From contig JBJKQO010000033.1 in assembly GCA_046705145.1 (NCBI GenBank), positions 4,023 to 68,022 on the forward strand: DNA of 64,000 bases, given 5' to 3'. The stretch is from Candidatus Woesearchaeota archaeon. Lineage in GTDB: Archaea > Nanobdellota > Nanobdellia > Woesearchaeales > JBJKQO01. Under the pieces are notes generated by a model. It was not told the DNA's origin and did no database searches. It was given only the letters and a program-made list of their open reading frames with translations. Positions 4,696 to 60,822 of this stretch are shown here, one piece after another (the first letter of the stretch is position 1; every line of letters starts with the position of its first letter). The translations under genes were made by a program, and so were the position numbers.

Positions 4696-4815
4696 CGCTG
4701 GGGACGGGAGTTTCAGTAAAACTAACCCATAGCTAACACATTTGAACCCGCGTGACACGGGAAAAGTGTCAACCTGATCTTCAGCCAGGCGCCATACCAG
4801 ACTATACCACCCCAG
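4696..4815 (-). tRNA. tRNA-like gene, possibly tRNA-Phe(GAA), carrying non-canonical introns including one in the T-loop
   Basis: Acceptor stem GCTGGGG/CCCCAGC, anticodon arm CCTGG-CTGAAGA-TCAGG with the classic Phe loop, and T-arm GCGGG-TTCAAA[31-nt insert]T-CCCGT. There is also a ~16-nt insert in the variable region. I could not fold the D-arm cleanly by eye. Confidence 0.35.
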
Positions 4816-5044
4816 CTTTGTCCAAAGATTTATATATGAGTATTATAATACTAGTTCATACGGGAAAAGTGTCAGCCTGGTTTTCAGCCAGGTTATTTTC
4901 TTTATTTTTTGCAAAAAGAACTCATTAATAAGCCTATGCTGCTTTTTTTCGGAGGGTTTTCGATTACTCGTATAATATTAACAATATGGGTAATAATGAG
5001 TAAGGTGAGAAAACTTTAAATATCTTGCATTTTTATTATTATGT

Positions 5045-12182: not shown

Positions 12183-12240
12183 ATCCCTAAGAAAGCTCGA
12201 AAACTATTTAAATGCTTGTCTGATTCGCCTTATGATAAAT

Positions 12241-12374
12241 GAGCCTGTAGCCTAGCCTGGATAGGGCGTCTGCCTCCTACTTCATCAGGAGAAGAGAGCA
12301 GAAGACCGGGGGTTCGAACAGCCTGCGCCTGCAAGACCGCATAAAGCGCGGCTTTGAAAGTCCCCCCAGGCTCA
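12241..12374 (+). tRNA. tRNA-Arg(CCU) with two introns (canonical 37/38 and T-loop 59/60)
   Basis: Acceptor GAGCCTG/CAGGCTC plus A discriminator, D-arm GCCT-AGCCTGGATA-GGGC, anticodon stem TCTGC/GCAGA with loop CTCCTA+17-nt intron, and T-arm GGGGG-TTCGAA[42-nt intron]T-CCCCC. It is followed by a TTTTTTT tract; no CCA is encoded. Confidence 0.55.
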
Positions 12375-12386
12375 TTTTTTTCTAAA

Positions 12387-16245: not shown

Positions 16246-16420
16246 TCTTGATAATGTCAGCATCAGGCTCGGCTGTGCTCCAGATAATGCTTCTCTCGTT
16301 GAAGCCCCGGATGGGGTGTCGCCAAGAATATCTTGGCGGACTTGCGAACAAGTTCGCAAGCGTCCCCCTCAACTCTGAACACATTCATCAGAATAGCCTC
16401 GCAAATTGATGCTGACATTA
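16246..16420. repeat. structured intergenic repeat, family C, copy 1
   Basis: Perfect 17-bp terminal inverted repeat tgataatgtcagcatca...tgatgctgacattatca encloses conserved modules ggctcggctgtgctcc, tcgccaa-N-ttggcggac, gcgaacaagttcgc, gttgaagccccgg and cccctcaactctga. Confidence 0.65.
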
Positions 16421-16477
16421 TCAAAAAAATGTTTTTTAGAAACTTTTATATAAATAATACGCTCAAGAACAGATTAA

Positions 16478-22512: not shown

Positions 22513-22653
22513 ATGGCAACTGCTAAAAGGAGACGGGTCTACGTAAAAGTCCGCGAGAAGTTCGACCTTGTCTCAGAGATCGAGAACTTGTGCCCGTGCG
22601 GGTCAAACCGCCCGTTTGACAGGTGCTGCGGCAGCGACATTCCGATGTATTAA
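22513..22653 (+). CDS. small SEC-C motif metal-binding protein
   Basis: 46 aa with CPCGSNRPFDRCCGS, which matches the SEC-C motif. A GGGGGGTGG Shine-Dalgarno sequence lies 4 nt upstream. Not in the ORF track because it is under 60 aa. Confidence 0.4.
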   Translation: MATAKRRRVYVKVREKFDLVSEIENLCPCGSNRPFDRCCGSDIPMY

Positions 22654-22711
22654 GGCAACTTAATCAGAAATTGTTATGCTTGTTCTTGTAGGTATAATTA
22701 TATAAGGCCAA

Positions 22712-22975
22712 ATAGGTTTTCGGCTGTGTCTCAAATCTTACTCTGCAAGGTCCGCATCAGCCTTTTAAGAAAAGTCTGGCGAAAACATAACGGGCGTGAA
22801 GCCCGTTGTCGCGGCTTTCTTATAAATCAGATAGCCGCGATGCATGACTTTATGTCATGCTTCTTTTGGTCCAGCTTTTGTAAAAGGTGGGGCTCGGCTG
22901 TGCTCCTGAAGTTACAAGTATCGTTGAAGCCCCGTAGGGGCCAACCCCCTCAACTCTGAGCACATTCATCAGAAG
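22712..22975. repeat. structured intergenic repeat, family C, copy 2
   Basis: Outer inverted repeat cggctgtgtctc...gagacacagcc. The internal ~110 nt is near-identical to copy 1 (ggctcggctgtgctcc...gttgaagccccg...cccctcaactctga...tgatgctgac). Confidence 0.6.
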
Positions 22976-23063
22976 AGCCTCGCAAATTGATGCTGACTAC
23001 ATTCGAGACACAGCCCAAGTTTTCAAAAACCTTTTATACTTATTCTGAATCAGTCATGTCAAC

Positions 23064-37097: not shown

Positions 37098-37380
37098 GAC
37101 TCGCTTACGCTTCGGTTAGCATCAAACTCGGCTTTACTTCTTATTTTAATTCTATCGCCAAGCAAGTTTGGCGGACTTAAAATTGGAGATTTTAAGCTTG
37201 ACGGACTCACGAACAAGTTCGTGAGAATCGTTGAAGCCCCGGAAGTGTCGCCAATTATGATTGGCGGACTTTGAAAAGTTGCACTTTTCAAAGGGACAAC
37301 CCCCTCAACTCAGGAATACTAATCAGAGCAGAGCCTCGTATTACTGATGCTAACACACTTGAGACACACCCCCCAACTAT
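37085..37380. repeat. structured intergenic repeat, family C, copy 3
   Basis: Closing inverted repeat gttagcatca...tgatgctaac. Contains two tcgccaa-N-ttggcggac hairpins, cacgaacaagttcgtg, gttgaagccccgg and cccctcaactc modules. Confidence 0.55.
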
Positions 37381-37431
37381 GCCTGCCAATACAAAAGATT
37401 TAAATACTTAAAATAATAAGTTAAATCTTCA

Positions 37432-37584
37432 TGGCTTTTGATCCTATGCACTCGTTTTTGACACGGCCCAAGTGCCCGACATGCGGCACACCTATACACT
37501 GGGGCATAACGACCAGGTTTGACAAAGGCAACGAATGCGAGATCTGTAACATCTGTGAGACTATCCTTGGCAACAAGGAATGAA
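37432..37584 (+). CDS. small zinc-ribbon protein (tentative)
   Basis: 50-aa ORF with CPTCGT...CEICNICE. No clear Shine-Dalgarno sequence. Confidence 0.3.
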
Positions 37585-39159: not shown

Positions 39160-39174
39160 CCCTTACAAAAAAAG

Positions 39175-39280
39175 TGGACCCGGCGGGATTTTCACAATCC
39201 AAAGTATTGAACCCGCTGCCTTCCGCGTTCCGGTCTCAAGAAAAGCCAGGCGGACACTCTACCGATGAGCTACGGGCCCA
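39175..39280 (-). tRNA. tRNA-Ala(GGC) with two introns (anticodon loop and T-loop)
   Basis: Acceptor GGGCCCG/CGGGTCC with the G3:U70 Ala identity pair, D-arm GCTC-ATCGGTA-GAGT, anticodon stem TCCGC/GCGGA with loop CTGGC[16-nt intron]AC, and T-arm GCGGG-TTCAA[17-nt intron]AT-CCCGC. The A discriminator is followed by CTTTTTTT. Confidence 0.6.
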
Positions 39281-43390: not shown

Positions 43391-43529
43391 CGCCGGGGCT
43401 GGGACTTTCATAAGCCAGCTTTTTGCTGCGCTCCTTTTGAACCCAGATATCCTTTCGGAAACGAGATATCTACACTTTCATAAAGAAAGTGTTCCAGTCT
43501 CGCGCGGTACCGAGTTGCGCCACCCCGGC
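43391..43529 (-). tRNA. tRNA-Ser(GGA), type II, with two introns (37/38 and T-loop 59/60)
   Basis: Acceptor GCCGGGG/CCCCGGC plus G, D-arm GCG-loop11-CGC, anticodon stem CGAGA/TCTCG with loop CTGGAA[24-nt intron]A, long variable arm TTTCCGAAAGGATAT, and T-arm CTGGG-TTCAAA[31-nt intron]T-CCCAG. Confidence 0.55.
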
Positions 43530-56156: not shown

Positions 56157-57164
56157 ATGGCAGATCTAGATAAGATTGATATTAAACTACTGGCAATCCT
56201 GGAAGAAGATGGCAGACAATCCTTATCGCAGATAGCAAAAAAGCTCAATACTTCTCAACAGGTTGTCAGCTACAGGATCAAATCTCTTGAAAAAAGGAAT
56301 ATCATAGGAGGATATTATACATTCATAAATTTTCTAAGGCTAGGCTATACCAGTTTCAGGACGATGATATCATTCAGCAACATAAATAAAACCAAACATA
56401 AGGAGATCATCTCTTTTCTTATGGATCATCCGAACGTCCTTTGGCTTGTTGACTGCAGCGGAAGGTGGGACCTGATAATTAACTTTCTGGCAAAAAACAT
56501 CATCCAGTACGAATCGATGTTCAATGAGTTCAGAAAAATGTTTCCAGACCAGATCCAAAACTATGACATACTCCCAACAGTTGAAGTGTCTTATTTCGGA
56601 AGAGATTACATAATGAAAAAACATAGGGACCTCAGAAAGAGTTCACTTCTCGGAAAAGAGTACGGGACAGACAGCCTGGACTTACTAAACTATAACATCC
56701 TTAAGATGATCTCAAAAAATGCAAGAATCCCTGCAGTTGAGATAGCAAATAAGCTTAAAGTTAGCCCTAACACTGTAATCCTTCGGCTTAATGAGCTAAA
56801 AAGAACCGGCATGATACAAGGTTATACCACGCTACTTCATCTGGATTATACAGGTTATAGCAGTTACAAGGCATTAATAAAGATATTTAATACGACCGAA
56901 GAAAAGGAAAATGCAATAATCAATAACCTGAGGTCTAACGTGAATGTAGTTGGATTCGTGAAACTTGTAGGATCCTGGAACTTTGAGATAGAATTTGAAG
57001 TAGAAACAAATGAGCAGATGATTGAACTCACAAGAGATATTAGAGACCGGTTCAGGGACAATATCAAGGAATTTGAGATAATCCAACTGCTTCACGAGTA
57101 TAAGTATGACTTCTTTCCTGGAGACCTGCTGGAAGACAACCCTAAAAAAAGCAATAAAAAATAA
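56157..57164 (+). CDS. double-domain Lrp/AsnC-like regulator, array paralog 1
   Basis: DIKLLAILEEDGRQSLSQIAKKLNTSQQVVSYRIKSL and NILKMISKNARIPAVEIANKLKVSPNTVILRLNEL HTHs, each followed by a RAM-like domain. C-terminus LHEYKYDFFPGDLLE. Confidence 0.65.
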   Translation: MADLDKIDIKLLAILEEDGRQSLSQIAKKLNTSQQVVSYRIKSLEKRNIIGGYYTFINFLRLGYTSFRTMISFSNINKTKHKEIISFLMDHPNVLWLVDCSGRWDLIINFLAKNIIQYESMFNEFRKMFPDQIQNYDILPTVEVSYFGRDYIMKKHRDLRKSSLLGKEYGTDSLDLLNYNILKMISKNARIPAVEIANKLKVSPNTVILRLNELKRTGMIQGYTTLLHLDYTGYSSYKALIKIFNTTEEKENAIINNLRSNVNVVGFVKLVGSWNFEIEFEVETNEQMIELTRDIRDRFRDNIKEFEIIQLLHEYKYDFFPGDLLEDNPKKSNKK

Positions 57165-57174
57165 CAAGGATCAA

Positions 57175-57243
57175 TCATTCAACCCTGCATTCACAATTAT
57201 CAGTTTCGACAGGTTTTAACTCATAATAGTGTTCTTCGACCAT
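57175..57243 (-). CDS. micro-ORF P5 (MVEEHYYELKPVETDNCECRVE)
   Basis: 22 aa. GGAGGG Shine-Dalgarno sequence 8 nt upstream. Divergent from Lrp paralog 2; its stop lies 10 nt past the stop of paralog 1. Confidence 0.45.
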   Translation of the reverse strand: MVEEHYYELKPVETDNCECRVE

Positions 57244-57357
57244 TTTAGTTCCCTCCTAAGTTATAATAATGTATAACTTCGAGATTAATTAAAGTATACG
57301 CCATATTTTTTTGTTAAATCGAAATATTTATATATAATTATTATATACCACAAAAAT

Positions 57358-58365
57358 ATGGTAATACTTGATAAAACCGATTTAAAGTTATTGTCGGAAT
57401 TAGATGATGATGCAAGACAGACCGTTTCAAAGATAGCAAAAACCCTAAACACCTCACAACAGGTCATCAGTTTCCGAATTAACTCCCTAAAGAGGAAAGA
57501 GATCATAAGCGAATACTACTCAATAATTAATTTTACAAAGCTGGGTTACACAAGTTACAGGACAATGATACGCTTCAGCAACATAAACAAGCAAAAACAC
57601 CAAGAGATCATAAAATATTTAACAGATCATCCAAACGTGCTATGGCTCGTCGACTGTGGTGGAAGATGGGATCTCCTCGTTAACTTTTTGGCAAAAGATA
57701 TAAAACAATACAGCATCATGTTCAATTCTTTTAAGAGCAGATTCCCGCAGCAGATAAGAAATTATGATGTCTTGACCACAATCGATTTTGTCTATCCTGG
57801 AAGAGCCTATTTATTTGGGCGAAAACCTGATAAGCCTAACAGGCCTTATGTAGGGATAGAAAGAGAGAAAGTAACCCTAGACAACACAGACTTAAACATC
57901 CTAAAAATGATATCTGAGGATGCGAGGCTAAGTAGTGTGATAATAGGCAATCACTTGGGGATAAGCTCTAATACTGTTATGACCCGGATAAAAGAGATGG
58001 GGAAAAAAGGGGTTCTTCTTGGAGCAAAGCCCCTAATCCATCTCGAAAACACCCCTTACAGGGGATATAAGGCACTTATTAAGTTTCAGGACATAACAGA
58101 AGAAAAAGAAAAAAGCATCATAAGCTTCCTGATGGAATTCGAGAATATAGTCGGCATAATAAGGATGGTGGGGATGTGGGATTTTGAGTTAGAGATCGAG
58201 TCAGAAAAACAGGAGGATGTGGTCGATATGATGAGATCCCTTCGGGACAGGTTCCATGATGTGATAAAAGAGTTTGAGATGTTCCCTTTGTTTCACGAAT
58301 ATAAGTACAACTTCTTTCCCAGAGATCTGCTGGAAGAGCATTCTGGCGAAAATATAACAAAGTAA
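57358..58365 (+). CDS. double-domain Lrp/AsnC-like regulator, array paralog 2
   Basis: Same architecture as paralog 1, about 50% identical. C-terminus FHEYKYNFFPRDLLE. Confidence 0.65.
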   Translation: MVILDKTDLKLLSELDDDARQTVSKIAKTLNTSQQVISFRINSLKRKEIISEYYSIINFTKLGYTSYRTMIRFSNINKQKHQEIIKYLTDHPNVLWLVDCGGRWDLLVNFLAKDIKQYSIMFNSFKSRFPQQIRNYDVLTTIDFVYPGRAYLFGRKPDKPNRPYVGIEREKVTLDNTDLNILKMISEDARLSSVIIGNHLGISSNTVMTRIKEMGKKGVLLGAKPLIHLENTPYRGYKALIKFQDITEEKEKSIISFLMEFENIVGIIRMVGMWDFELEIESEKQEDVVDMMRSLRDRFHDVIKEFEMFPLFHEYKYNFFPRDLLEEHSGENITK

Positions 58366-58443
58366 CAAAAATAATAAGCCCTGATGTTTCTATCCGGGTT
58401 ATTGCGCAAAATATAATTCGTGTTCAAGCTGATTTAGGCAATA

Positions 58444-58512
58444 TCACTCCATCCTAGCTTCGCAATCATCAGGGTCTAATTCTTCCAATTTGAATTTTGT
58501 TTCTTCCTCCAT
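58444..58512 (-). CDS. micro-ORF P6 (MEEETKFKLEELDPDDCEARME)
   Basis: 22 aa. GGAGGT Shine-Dalgarno sequence 6 nt upstream. Variant C-terminus DCEARME-stop. Confidence 0.4.
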   Translation of the reverse strand: MEEETKFKLEELDPDDCEARME

Positions 58513-58637
58513 TTTATACCTCCAAGCAGGTTATACTGCTCATAGTATATAGTGACATGAAAAATAATAAAACCTGTATGTTATAATATTTGTAAAATAG
58601 GAAAATTTATATAATAAAAGAAAATATAACAAAAATT

Positions 58638-59636
58638 ATGAAAAAAATTGATAAGATAGATCTCAAGATCATGTCTGCTTTAGACGATGATGCACATTGT
58701 TCGCTGTCTAGGTTAGCTAAAAAATTACAAACCTCCCAACAGGTCATAAGCTTTAGGCTGCAGTCCCTTAAAAAAAGGGGCATAATCAGCTCATTCTTTA
58801 CAGTTATTGATTTTACAAAGTTGGGATATACCAATTACAGGACAATGATCCGCTTTAGTAATATTGATGAAAAACGACATAAAGAAATAATTTATTTCCT
58901 AAGGGATCATCCCAGTGTGCTTTGGATCGTTGACTGCAGCGGAAGGTGGGACATTATAGTAAACTTTATGGCAAAGGACATAAGAAGGTATAACCTAATC
59001 ATAAGGGAATTTATCAATAGGTTTCCTGACCAGATCCAAAACTATGATGTTCTCACGACAGTTGAGCTATTGTATTTCAAAAGGGATTACTTTGACAAGA
59101 ATCATAGAAAAATAGATATCCTGCCCTATTTTGCTGATAACACTGAAATAATGAGTTTGGATGATATGAATATCAAAATCCTTGACCTTATATCAGAAGA
59201 TGCTAGACTTAGCTCAGTCGTAATAGCAAATAAGCTAAAACTAACTCCAAAGACCGTCCTTGCCAGGATAAAAGAGATGAAAAAAGAAGGTATCATCTGG
59301 GGATTTAAGCCGCTTATACATCTCGAAAACACCCCTTACCGCAGCTTTAAGGCTTTTGTGAAATTCCAAAACATAACTGAACAAAAAGAAAAACAGATCA
59401 TAGCCTTTTTTTCAGATAAGGCTAATGTGGTAGGTGTGATCCGTATGATAGGTCTTTGGGATTTTGAGGTGGAAATCGAGTCAGAAAGCCAGGAATATGT
59501 GATAAAACTCACAAGGGATTTCAGGGATAGATTTAAAGACATAATCAAAGAATTTGAGATAGTCCCCCTATTTCATGAGTACAAGTATAACTTCTTCCCA
59601 AGAGAACTAGTTAAAAAGAATGATACAAATACATAG
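58638..59636 (+). CDS. double-domain Lrp/AsnC-like regulator, array paralog 3
   Basis: Same architecture. C-terminus FHEYKYNFFPRELVK. Confidence 0.65.
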   Translation: MKKIDKIDLKIMSALDDDAHCSLSRLAKKLQTSQQVISFRLQSLKKRGIISSFFTVIDFTKLGYTNYRTMIRFSNIDEKRHKEIIYFLRDHPSVLWIVDCSGRWDIIVNFMAKDIRRYNLIIREFINRFPDQIQNYDVLTTVELLYFKRDYFDKNHRKIDILPYFADNTEIMSLDDMNIKILDLISEDARLSSVVIANKLKLTPKTVLARIKEMKKEGIIWGFKPLIHLENTPYRSFKAFVKFQNITEQKEKQIIAFFSDKANVVGVIRMIGLWDFEVEIESESQEYVIKLTRDFRDRFKDIIKEFEIVPLFHEYKYNFFPRELVKKNDTNT

Positions 59637-59642
59637 TCTCAT

Positions 59643-59705
59643 TTTATTCTGCCCTAGTCTCACAGGCATCAGGTTCTATTTTTTCGAATTCTTTGTTTTT
59701 TATCA
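59643..59705 (-). CDS. micro-ORF P7 (MIKNKEFEKIEPDACETRAE)
   Basis: 20 aa. GGAGGT Shine-Dalgarno sequence 7 nt upstream. Variant C-terminus ACETRAE-stop. Confidence 0.4.
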
Positions 59706-59826
59706 TTTTATAACCTCCTTATACATCTTCATCATAGTAAGTACTTTCAAAATTTATATAATTAATCACCATAATATTTTGTAAAATAACAAAATTTATA
59801 TAATATATCATCATAACACAATAAAT

Positions 59827-60822
59827 ATGACTAAAATGGATAAGTTTGATATGAAACTGCTTGCAGTGCTTGAGGAGGATGCAAGGCAAACCTCATCAAA
59901 AATAGCCAAAAGATTAAACACGTCACAACAGGTAGTCAGTTACAGGATCAAATCTCTGGAAAAAAGGAAGGTCATCATAGGATATTATCCTATCATTAAC
60001 ATCACAAAATTGGGTTACACAAGTTACAGGACAATGTTTCGGTTGAATGACACTGACAAGAAGACCCATTCAGAGATTGTCAAATACCTGAAAGAGAATT
60101 CCAATGTTTTGTGGTTTGTTGACTGCGGCGGAAGATGGGACCTAATAGTCAATTTTATAGCAAGGAATATCCTCCATTATAGCGCCCTATTAAGAGATTT
60201 CAGAAATTCCTTTAAGGGCCTGGTACAAAACCCTGATGTTCTTACGACTATTGAAATGATCCATCTGGGAAGAGAATACCTTACCAAAAAAAAGAGAGAA
60301 ATCATGGAACCCCCTCATTTCGGAAGAGAAGAAGAAAAAATTCTGCCTGACTTGACTAACCTGAAAATACTCAAAATCCTCTCAAAAGACGCCAGAACTA
60401 ATTCGGTACAGATTTCACAGGAACTAGGGATAAGGCCGAGTACAGTTATGCTAAGGATAAAAGACATGAAAAAGTCTGGAATTATCCAAGGGTTTAGGGC
60501 GCAGCTCAACTTAGAAAATACACCTTACAAAGGGTATAAGGCAGTCGTGAAATTCCAGAACATAACTGAAGAAGTAGAGCATGATATCATAGGTTACCTA
60601 AATCAGGACGTAAGGGTTTACGCAATAATAAGGATTATAGGCCTCTGGGACTTTGAGATAGAATTTGAGGTCGAGAATAATGAGCAGATGCTTGAGCTGA
60701 CAAGGTCTTTTAGGGACAAGTTCAAGGAACATATCAAAGAATTTGAGGTAATACCCCTATTCCATGAGTACCGCTACAACTTCTTTCCTGGAGACCTGCT
60801 GGAAAACAACGCAAAACTATAA
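59827..60822 (+). CDS. double-domain Lrp/AsnC-like regulator, array paralog 4
   Basis: Same architecture. C-terminus FHEYRYNFFPGDLLE. Confidence 0.65.
   Translation: MTKMDKFDMKLLAVLEEDARQTSSKIAKRLNTSQQVVSYRIKSLEKRKVIIGYYPIINITKLGYTSYRTMFRLNDTDKKTHSEIVKYLKENSNVLWFVDCGGRWDLIVNFIARNILHYSALLRDFRNSFKGLVQNPDVLTTIEMIHLGREYLTKKKREIMEPPHFGREEEKILPDLTNLKILKILSKDARTNSVQISQELGIRPSTVMLRIKDMKKSGIIQGFRAQLNLENTPYKGYKAVVKFQNITEEVEHDIIGYLNQDVRVYAIIRIIGLWDFEIEFEVENNEQMLELTRSFRDKFKEHIKEFEVIPLFHEYRYNFFPGDLLENNAKL

Follow-up and report, generated by a model that had tools for sequence, protein, structure and literature searches.

The segment at 12241-12374 reads as a tRNA-Arg(CCU) only when two internal stretches are taken out, one of them from the T loop, which raises the question of whether it is a working gene and how its transcript could be matured. 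Considering the whole 64-kb stretch of DNA that was analysed (the window), we conclude with a probability of roughly 90% that it is one of four functional tRNA genes interrupted by introns of the bulge-helix-bulge (BHB) type and spliced by proteins in a Woesearchaeota-like DPANN host.

ARAGORN called zero tRNAs in the raw 64-kb window, and the Rfam tRNA model at its gathering threshold returned a single match, a tRNA-Ala at 39175-39279 on the minus strand (45.5 bits), aligned with 16 surplus nucleotides in the anticodon loop and 17 in the T loop. The same model gave a weak, sub-threshold and mis-aligned match on the unspliced 5' part of the Arg locus and no match at the Ser locus. Following deletion of the introns in silico, ARAGORN recognized tRNA-Arg(CCU) (12241-12374, plus strand; precursor 134 nt, spliced 75 nt), tRNA-Ala(GGC) with the G3:U70 pair (39175-39279, minus strand; 105 nt and 72 nt) and a class II tRNA-Ser(GGA) (43391-43529, minus strand; 139 nt and 84 nt). 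When the T-loop insert alone was deleted, each of the three was reported as a tRNA with an anticodon-loop intron. The identity marks are correct after splicing, namely G3:U70 for Ala and the class II arm together with G73 for Ser.

Our own scan of the window, based on a T arm with an interrupted loop and a matching acceptor stem, returned these three genes and a fourth one at 4696-4816 on the minus strand, which carries a GAA anticodon, a variable arm at 4752-4772 and G73, and has no 37/38 intron. All four spliced sequences were called by ARAGORN, removal of the inserts restoring the cloverleaf and the 7-nt loop in each case. The pattern GGGTTCRAW N{8,38} TGAAAN TCCC had four matches in the window where 0.01 would be expected, and the 59/60 intron was present in 4/4 of the tRNAs found there. 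No further hidden tRNAs were detected in the GC-rich, ORF-free intergenic stretches of the window.

An earlier reading, made from the letters alone (the sequence-only reading), had proposed tRNA-Arg(CCU), tRNA-Ala(GGC) and tRNA-Ser(GGA) at these loci, with a cloverleaf that forms only after splicing and two introns per gene, one of 16-24 nt at 37/38 and one of 17-42 nt in the T loop. The ARAGORN calls on the spliced sequences and the intron coordinates re-read from the sequence agree with it on these points. Its Ala locus was right and its boundaries, 39175-39280, were not, as G1 lies at 39279; both Ala and Ser are located on the minus strand, a correction to that reading. The three tRNAs that it listed do carry a 59/60 intron, but it overlooked the gene at 4696-4816.

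The T-loop introns have a common anatomy. In tRNA-Arg the intron measures 42 nt (12319-12360, plus strand), with a UUCG/UGAA central helix paired at 4/4 positions, an inner helix of 4+4 bp and the bulges AA^C and AG^U. The central helix is UUCA/UGAA, again 4/4, in the 31-nt intron of tRNA-Ser (43405-43435, minus strand; inner helix 4+4 bp), in the 31-nt intron of the GAA tRNA (4710-4740, minus strand; inner helix 3+5 bp) and in the 17-nt intron of tRNA-Ala (39189-39205, minus strand), where the inner helix is nearly absent and the motif belongs to the hBH, or bulge-helix-loop, type. Throughout the four genes the T stem supplies a 5/5 outer helix, the central helix is complete (4/4) and both 3-nt bulges are present. 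U54-U55-C56-R57 pairs at 4/4 positions with a UGAA that occupies intron positions -6 to -3; the 5' bulge consists of A58-N59 and the first intron base, the 3' bulge of the last two intron bases and U60. Folds constrained to the BHB lay 0.3-1.8 kcal/mol from the local minimum free energy. By the BHB rule the endonuclease cleaves each bulge after its second base, and the first base of the loop (32 or 54) pairs with intron base -3; the introns are assigned to 59/60 because this cut rule was applied to the T-arm motif. The sequence-only reading had described the loop as split in the form TTCRAA-intron-T; the 59/60 site stands, although in Ala the motif reads TTCAAT-intron-T.

The anticodon-loop introns fit the same scheme more loosely. 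Those of Arg (17 nt at 37/38, 12280-12296, plus strand; central helix CUCC/GAAG) and Ser (24 nt at 37/38, 43468-43491, minus strand; inner helix 6 bp) each have one mismatch in the central helix (3/4), i.e., a relaxed BHB, and that of Ala (16 nt, 39228-39243, minus strand) shows a CUGG/CCGG helix paired at 4/4 positions. For all three, the unconstrained fold favours another pairing by 4-6.5 kcal/mol. The motif check thus agrees with the earlier expectation of BHB motifs at the junctions, in relaxed form at the Arg and Ser anticodon loops.

Both the T arm and the anticodon arm consist of a 5-bp stem and a 7-nt loop, in which the cut follows the sixth base. Position 59/60 is thus the structural counterpart of 37/38, and therefore its recurrence across isoacceptors is expected and constitutes no anomaly. 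The T-loop introns resemble canonical 37/38 introns in their enzyme logic, in the 5-bp stem and 7-nt loop and in the pairing of the first four loop bases to the intron, and differ from them in having the T arm as the scaffold of the motif. As this motif uses the conserved T-loop UUCR, a T-loop intron must end in YGAA-NN. Pairing with invariant T-loop bases imposes the TGAAA conserved at the intron ends, which is therefore no evidence of intron kinship.

The register of the cuts is the point at which a rival account fares best. A purine at position 37 is nearly universal in tRNAs. In tRNA-Ala a strict BHB cut leaves U37, both in the window (39228-39243) and in the Ala(GGC) gene of another genome, L124 (5806-5890), and shifting both Ala cuts by one base replaces it with A37 in the window and in L124 alike. 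The T-loop introns might then be real but cut at 58/59, or elsewhere off the strict rule, in which case the exon boundaries and Ala position 37 would differ; a one-base shift of both cuts still gives 7-nt loops. Against this, the known BHB geometry fits 59/60 with a perfect 4-bp helix in 4/4 genes, and we consider a shifted register unlikely.

The arrangement is also widespread. One genome per GTDB species was scanned with a query that combined the Phe anticodon loop and a downstream T arm bearing the intron signature, an anchor adopted because a general T-loop-intron pattern had given chance matches only, and no tRNA, on viral contigs. Of the 63 loci obtained, about 58 are archaeal and about 5 are bacterial chance matches, the latter number having been estimated beforehand. 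The archaeal loci belong to Woesearchaeota (about 25), Nanoarchaeia, Aenigmatarchaeota, Micrarchaeota, Asgard, Thaumarchaeota, Brockarchaeota and Bathyarchaeia, and removal of their 59/60 inserts gave isotypes including Phe, Asp, Tyr, Lys, Trp, Leu, Cys and Gly, other tRNAs lacking this intron. The T-loop intron is present or absent depending on the genome, since the Ala(GGC) gene of L124 has the anticodon-loop intron and an intact T loop. Several metagenome-assembled genomes (MAGs) labelled Methanosarcinales contain tRNA genes nearly identical to those of Nanoarchaeia/Woesearchaeota, and as their sequences match DPANN ones these labels look unreliable. In addition, a tRNA-Phe with both a 59/60 intron and a long insert in the D-loop region was observed in Asgard MAGs (L102, L112, L118, L145, L155 and L157).

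Such conservation bears on the idea that these are pseudogenes, i.e., tRNA genes killed by short insertions and never spliced. The failure of standard finders and the imperfection of three of the six or seven BHB motifs would suit this idea, but every insertion sits exactly at a BHB-forming site and its removal restores perfect stems; every one of the four tRNAs found in 64 kb would need to be inactive, and the arrangement is kept in dozens of genomes with compensatory stem changes. We regard it as very improbable. Retention of the inserts in the mature tRNA as extra T-loop arms appears less probable still: the inserts of Arg, Ser and the GAA tRNA do form stable hairpins, but the contact between T loop and D loop would break, and the inserts of orthologues vary freely in length and sequence while the BHB-forming UGAA is kept. 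Finally, self-splicing group I or II introns (group I introns being known from archaea and, in other lineages, from tRNA genes) and split or permuted tRNA genes can practically be dismissed, as the inserts of 16-42 nt are too short for a ribozyme core of about 200 nt or more and matched no Rfam intron family, and the exons are contiguous, collinear and in normal order.

The sequences flanking the genes are those of ordinary archaeal transcription units. TATA-like boxes were found 25-27 nt upstream of Arg, Ala and Ser; that of Arg (TATTTAAAT, 12205-12213, plus strand) lies 27 nt upstream of +1 and, judging by its sequence, is a putative promoter. A T7 tract (12375-12381, plus strand) directly follows A73 of Arg, and another one (39167-39173, minus strand) follows A73 of Ala after one C; both are probable terminators, going by archaeal biology. 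Oligo-T is the usual archaeal transcription terminator and many archaea leave CCA unencoded, so that neither the T tracts nor the missing CCA is out of the ordinary. The sequence-only reading had described T6-T7 tracts directly after Arg and Ala and had taken them for poly-T tails of the tRNAs. The tracts exist, immediately adjacent in Arg and one base removed in Ala, but as terminators in the DNA rather than as tails; its statement that no CCA is encoded was correct for all genes.

We infer the enzymes, the splicing itself and the order of the steps from these features. A TATA-type promoter would drive each gene and the oligo-T tract would end the Arg and Ala transcripts. In the precursor, U54-U55-C56-R57 would pair with the UGAA near the intron 3' end, forming a 4-bp helix that stacks on the T stem, and A58-N59-i1 on one side and the last two intron bases with U60 on the other would remain as 3-nt bulges in the same geometry as at 37/38. 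The archaeal splicing endonuclease EndA would then cut each bulge between its second and third base, RtcB would ligate the exons and the CCA-adding enzyme would finish the 3' end; the anticodon-loop introns would be excised likewise by way of their more relaxed motifs. The introns need no function of their own, and most simply they are tolerated insertions under an endonuclease of broad specificity.

Introns of this kind were already documented and conceptually they are nothing new. Position 59/60 is among the listed non-canonical intron positions (PMC4090602), and the EndA of ARMAN-2 (Candidatus Micrarchaeum acidiphilum) cleaved in vitro the 59/60 intron of its tRNA-Cys, its tRNA-Pro also having a 59/60 intron (PMC3239211). 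The recurrence of the site across unrelated isoacceptors, which had been singled out as noteworthy, was thus overrated in its novelty, as the site was already listed and had been cleaved experimentally in a DPANN archaeon. ARMAN-2 pre-tRNA-Cys(GCA) and pre-tRNA-Pro(GGG) are the closest parallel, sharing with our genes the DPANN host, the 59/60 site, strict or relaxed BHB motifs and a disrupted tRNA set; the Cys intron cut by the host EndA has 13 nt and is of the hBH type (PMC3239211). In contrast, the window host is Woesearchaeota-like and not a member of Micrarchaeota, its T-loop introns are longer (17-42 nt) and near the strict hBHBh' form in three of the four cases, and 3/4 of its genes have a 37/38 intron as well. 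The multi-intron tRNA genes of Thermoproteales coexist with a broad-specificity EndA, but these are TACK hyperthermophiles with very diverse intron positions, whereas the non-canonical site of the window is always 59/60 (PMC4090602). DPANN EndAs with an L3 loop go together with heavily disrupted and partly undetected tRNA sets, including that of one Woesearchaeota genome (PMC5829648).

The host was placed with Woesearchaeota/Nanoarchaeota on the basis of the thermosome encoded in the window, which is 73-81% identical to proteins so labelled. By this placement the window DNA is that of an uncultured Woesearchaeota-like DPANN archaeon, in line with the DPANN attribution made earlier. Other genes of the window are ordinary housekeeping ones, GAPDH, PGK, TruD and LeuA among others. 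The nearest thermosome homologue (P0002, 81% identity) was encoded on a contig with other neighbours and without a tRNA-Arg, so that synteny was of no help; exact-protein look-ups with window proteins returned no match, and no endA, rtcB or cca was present among the approximately 40 window ORFs scanned, which are part of its ORFs. The genetic code of the window is the standard one, since positions that read as Phe in the thermosome are occupied by Phe, Tyr, Leu or Met in the alignment with a solved homologue, an alignment that also rules out recoding of UUY.

Several other elements were observed in the window. A structured-looking element of about 165-190 nt occurs in three diverged copies (16255-16440, 22878-23040 and 37195-37385), which share the motifs TCGTTGAAGCCCCG and ACCCCCTCAACTC, a variable internal hairpin, complementary ends and some compensatory pairs; invariant G-U pairs favour the minus strand, no Rfam match was obtained, and it may be a small mobile element (MITE). 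In ORF-free gaps adjoining two of these copies there are short ORFs (22514-22654 and 37432-37584, both plus strand; about 45-50 aa) that are rich in cysteine and contain CxxC or SEC-C-like motifs. Four paralogous genes lie in tandem in an AT-rich stretch at 56157-60822 (plus strand); their products, about 332-335 aa long, each contain a pair of Lrp/AsnC-type winged-helix units (NirD/L-like).

The fourth tRNA deserves separate consideration. The gene at 4696-4816 has the anticodon loop CUGAAGA, G73, U20, a class II D arm, the stem of which is weak in the window copy, and a 21-nt variable-arm hairpin. Canonical Woesearchaeota tRNA-Phe genes from the genome scan (for instance L103, L107 and L135) are of class I, with A73, G20 and the D arm TAGCTCAG...GGGAGAGC, and the window gene departs from them in class and at both positions. 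The same design was found in four genome loci (L130, L144, L152 and L153), and a metagenome scan without an anticodon constraint added nine more (L165-L173, L165 and L171 being the same in sequence); the 12 complete-gene loci correspond to 11 distinct complete sequences. In these 11 members the variable stem has 5-8 bp and G73 is invariant, 218/220 stem cells are paired and compensatory changes occur in 13/20 stem pairs. Since the stems pair and covary, the alignment marks the family as a maintained and, by this token, functional RNA.

We considered whether the variable-arm hairpin could be an intron of the 45/46 type, and rejected it: inspection by hand found no splice register that would give a central helix of 4 bp, the D arm belongs to the class II type, and the covariation in the hairpin stem is that of a genuine variable arm. 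Pairing of a variable-loop CCC with a GGG of the T-loop intron was seen in 9/12 members, too inconsistently to be claimed.

The anticodon is mostly GAA, with CAA in L169, CAG in L173 and UAA in L167, and no family member has a Ser anticodon. The family nevertheless displays the long variable arm, G73 and 3-bp D stem of serine-type class II tRNAs. Leucine identity needs A73, and G73 with a long arm specifies Ser whatever the anticodon (PMC9976931); these identity rules predict that the class II GAA tRNA would be charged with serine. Bacterial allo-tRNAs resemble this fourth tRNA, and it alone among the window genes, in combining a long variable arm and G73 with non-Ser anticodons; they differ in being bacterial and in having 8/4 or 9/3 acceptor/T stems, the family being archaeal with 7/5 (PMC7609411), and in that the window family has a T-loop intron and an upstream partial self-copy.

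This self-copy is a partial direct repeat of the gene, located in the window at 4860-4892 (minus strand), 44-76 nt upstream of it, identical at 30/33 nt and covering the anticodon arm and the 5' strand and loop of the variable arm. It was present in every complete member (L130, L144, L152, L153, L165, L166, L168-L170, L172 and L173), where it spans from about position 6-8 to the variable loop, i.e., the D arm, the anticodon arm and the 5' half of the variable arm, starting about 70-120 nt and ending about 40-65 nt upstream of the gene. Copies are 75-94% identical to their own gene (mean 83%), whereas the median identity among genes from different loci is 68%; the closest match of each copy is its own gene or a near-identical relative. 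Alignment scores of the self-copies range from 54 to 76 in the family, against at most 34 in 43 other T-loop-intron tRNAs, none of which has a comparable upstream copy. The interval separating copy from gene contains a strongly conserved TATA-like box. L167 has just one unit, which at its 5' end resembles a copy and lacks the 5' acceptor strand, as expected from a deletion between the repeats. Across the family there was no conserved neighbouring gene, and no consensus structure was predicted for the leader. An origin as an integration (att) remnant is unlikely, as the spacing is constant and short in the 12 complete-gene loci and the flanking genes are housekeeping ones.

Three hypotheses can be put forward for the self-copy: a tandem duplication that became trapped and whose units are kept alike by gene conversion, a leader that is transcribed and would compete for the 3' strand of the variable arm, or a regulatory site acting at the DNA level. 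Tentatively, and with the balance of odds against it, we suggest that the gene at 4696-4816 belongs to an undescribed archaeal tRNA family with class II structure, serine-type signals, Phe/Leu anticodons and a co-evolving upstream self-copy, the latter possibly being a regulatory or processing element and not a frozen duplication.

For annotation, the interrupted T loops mean that genomes of this lineage look tRNA-poor to standard finders lacking a 59/60 model. The occurrence of the T-loop site in DPANN, Asgard and TACK archaea supports the notion that any stem-loop resembling the anticodon arm can host an intron under a permissive endonuclease. As for the class II GAA tRNA, charging with Ser or Leu would imply either misreading of UUY codons or a role outside the ribosome, and a cell with this as its only tRNA-Phe would provide the first example of a class II tRNA-Phe. 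The combination of a class II, G73-bearing GAA tRNA with its self-copy thus bears on tRNA identity and decoding fidelity in DPANN archaea, and is more interesting than the introns.
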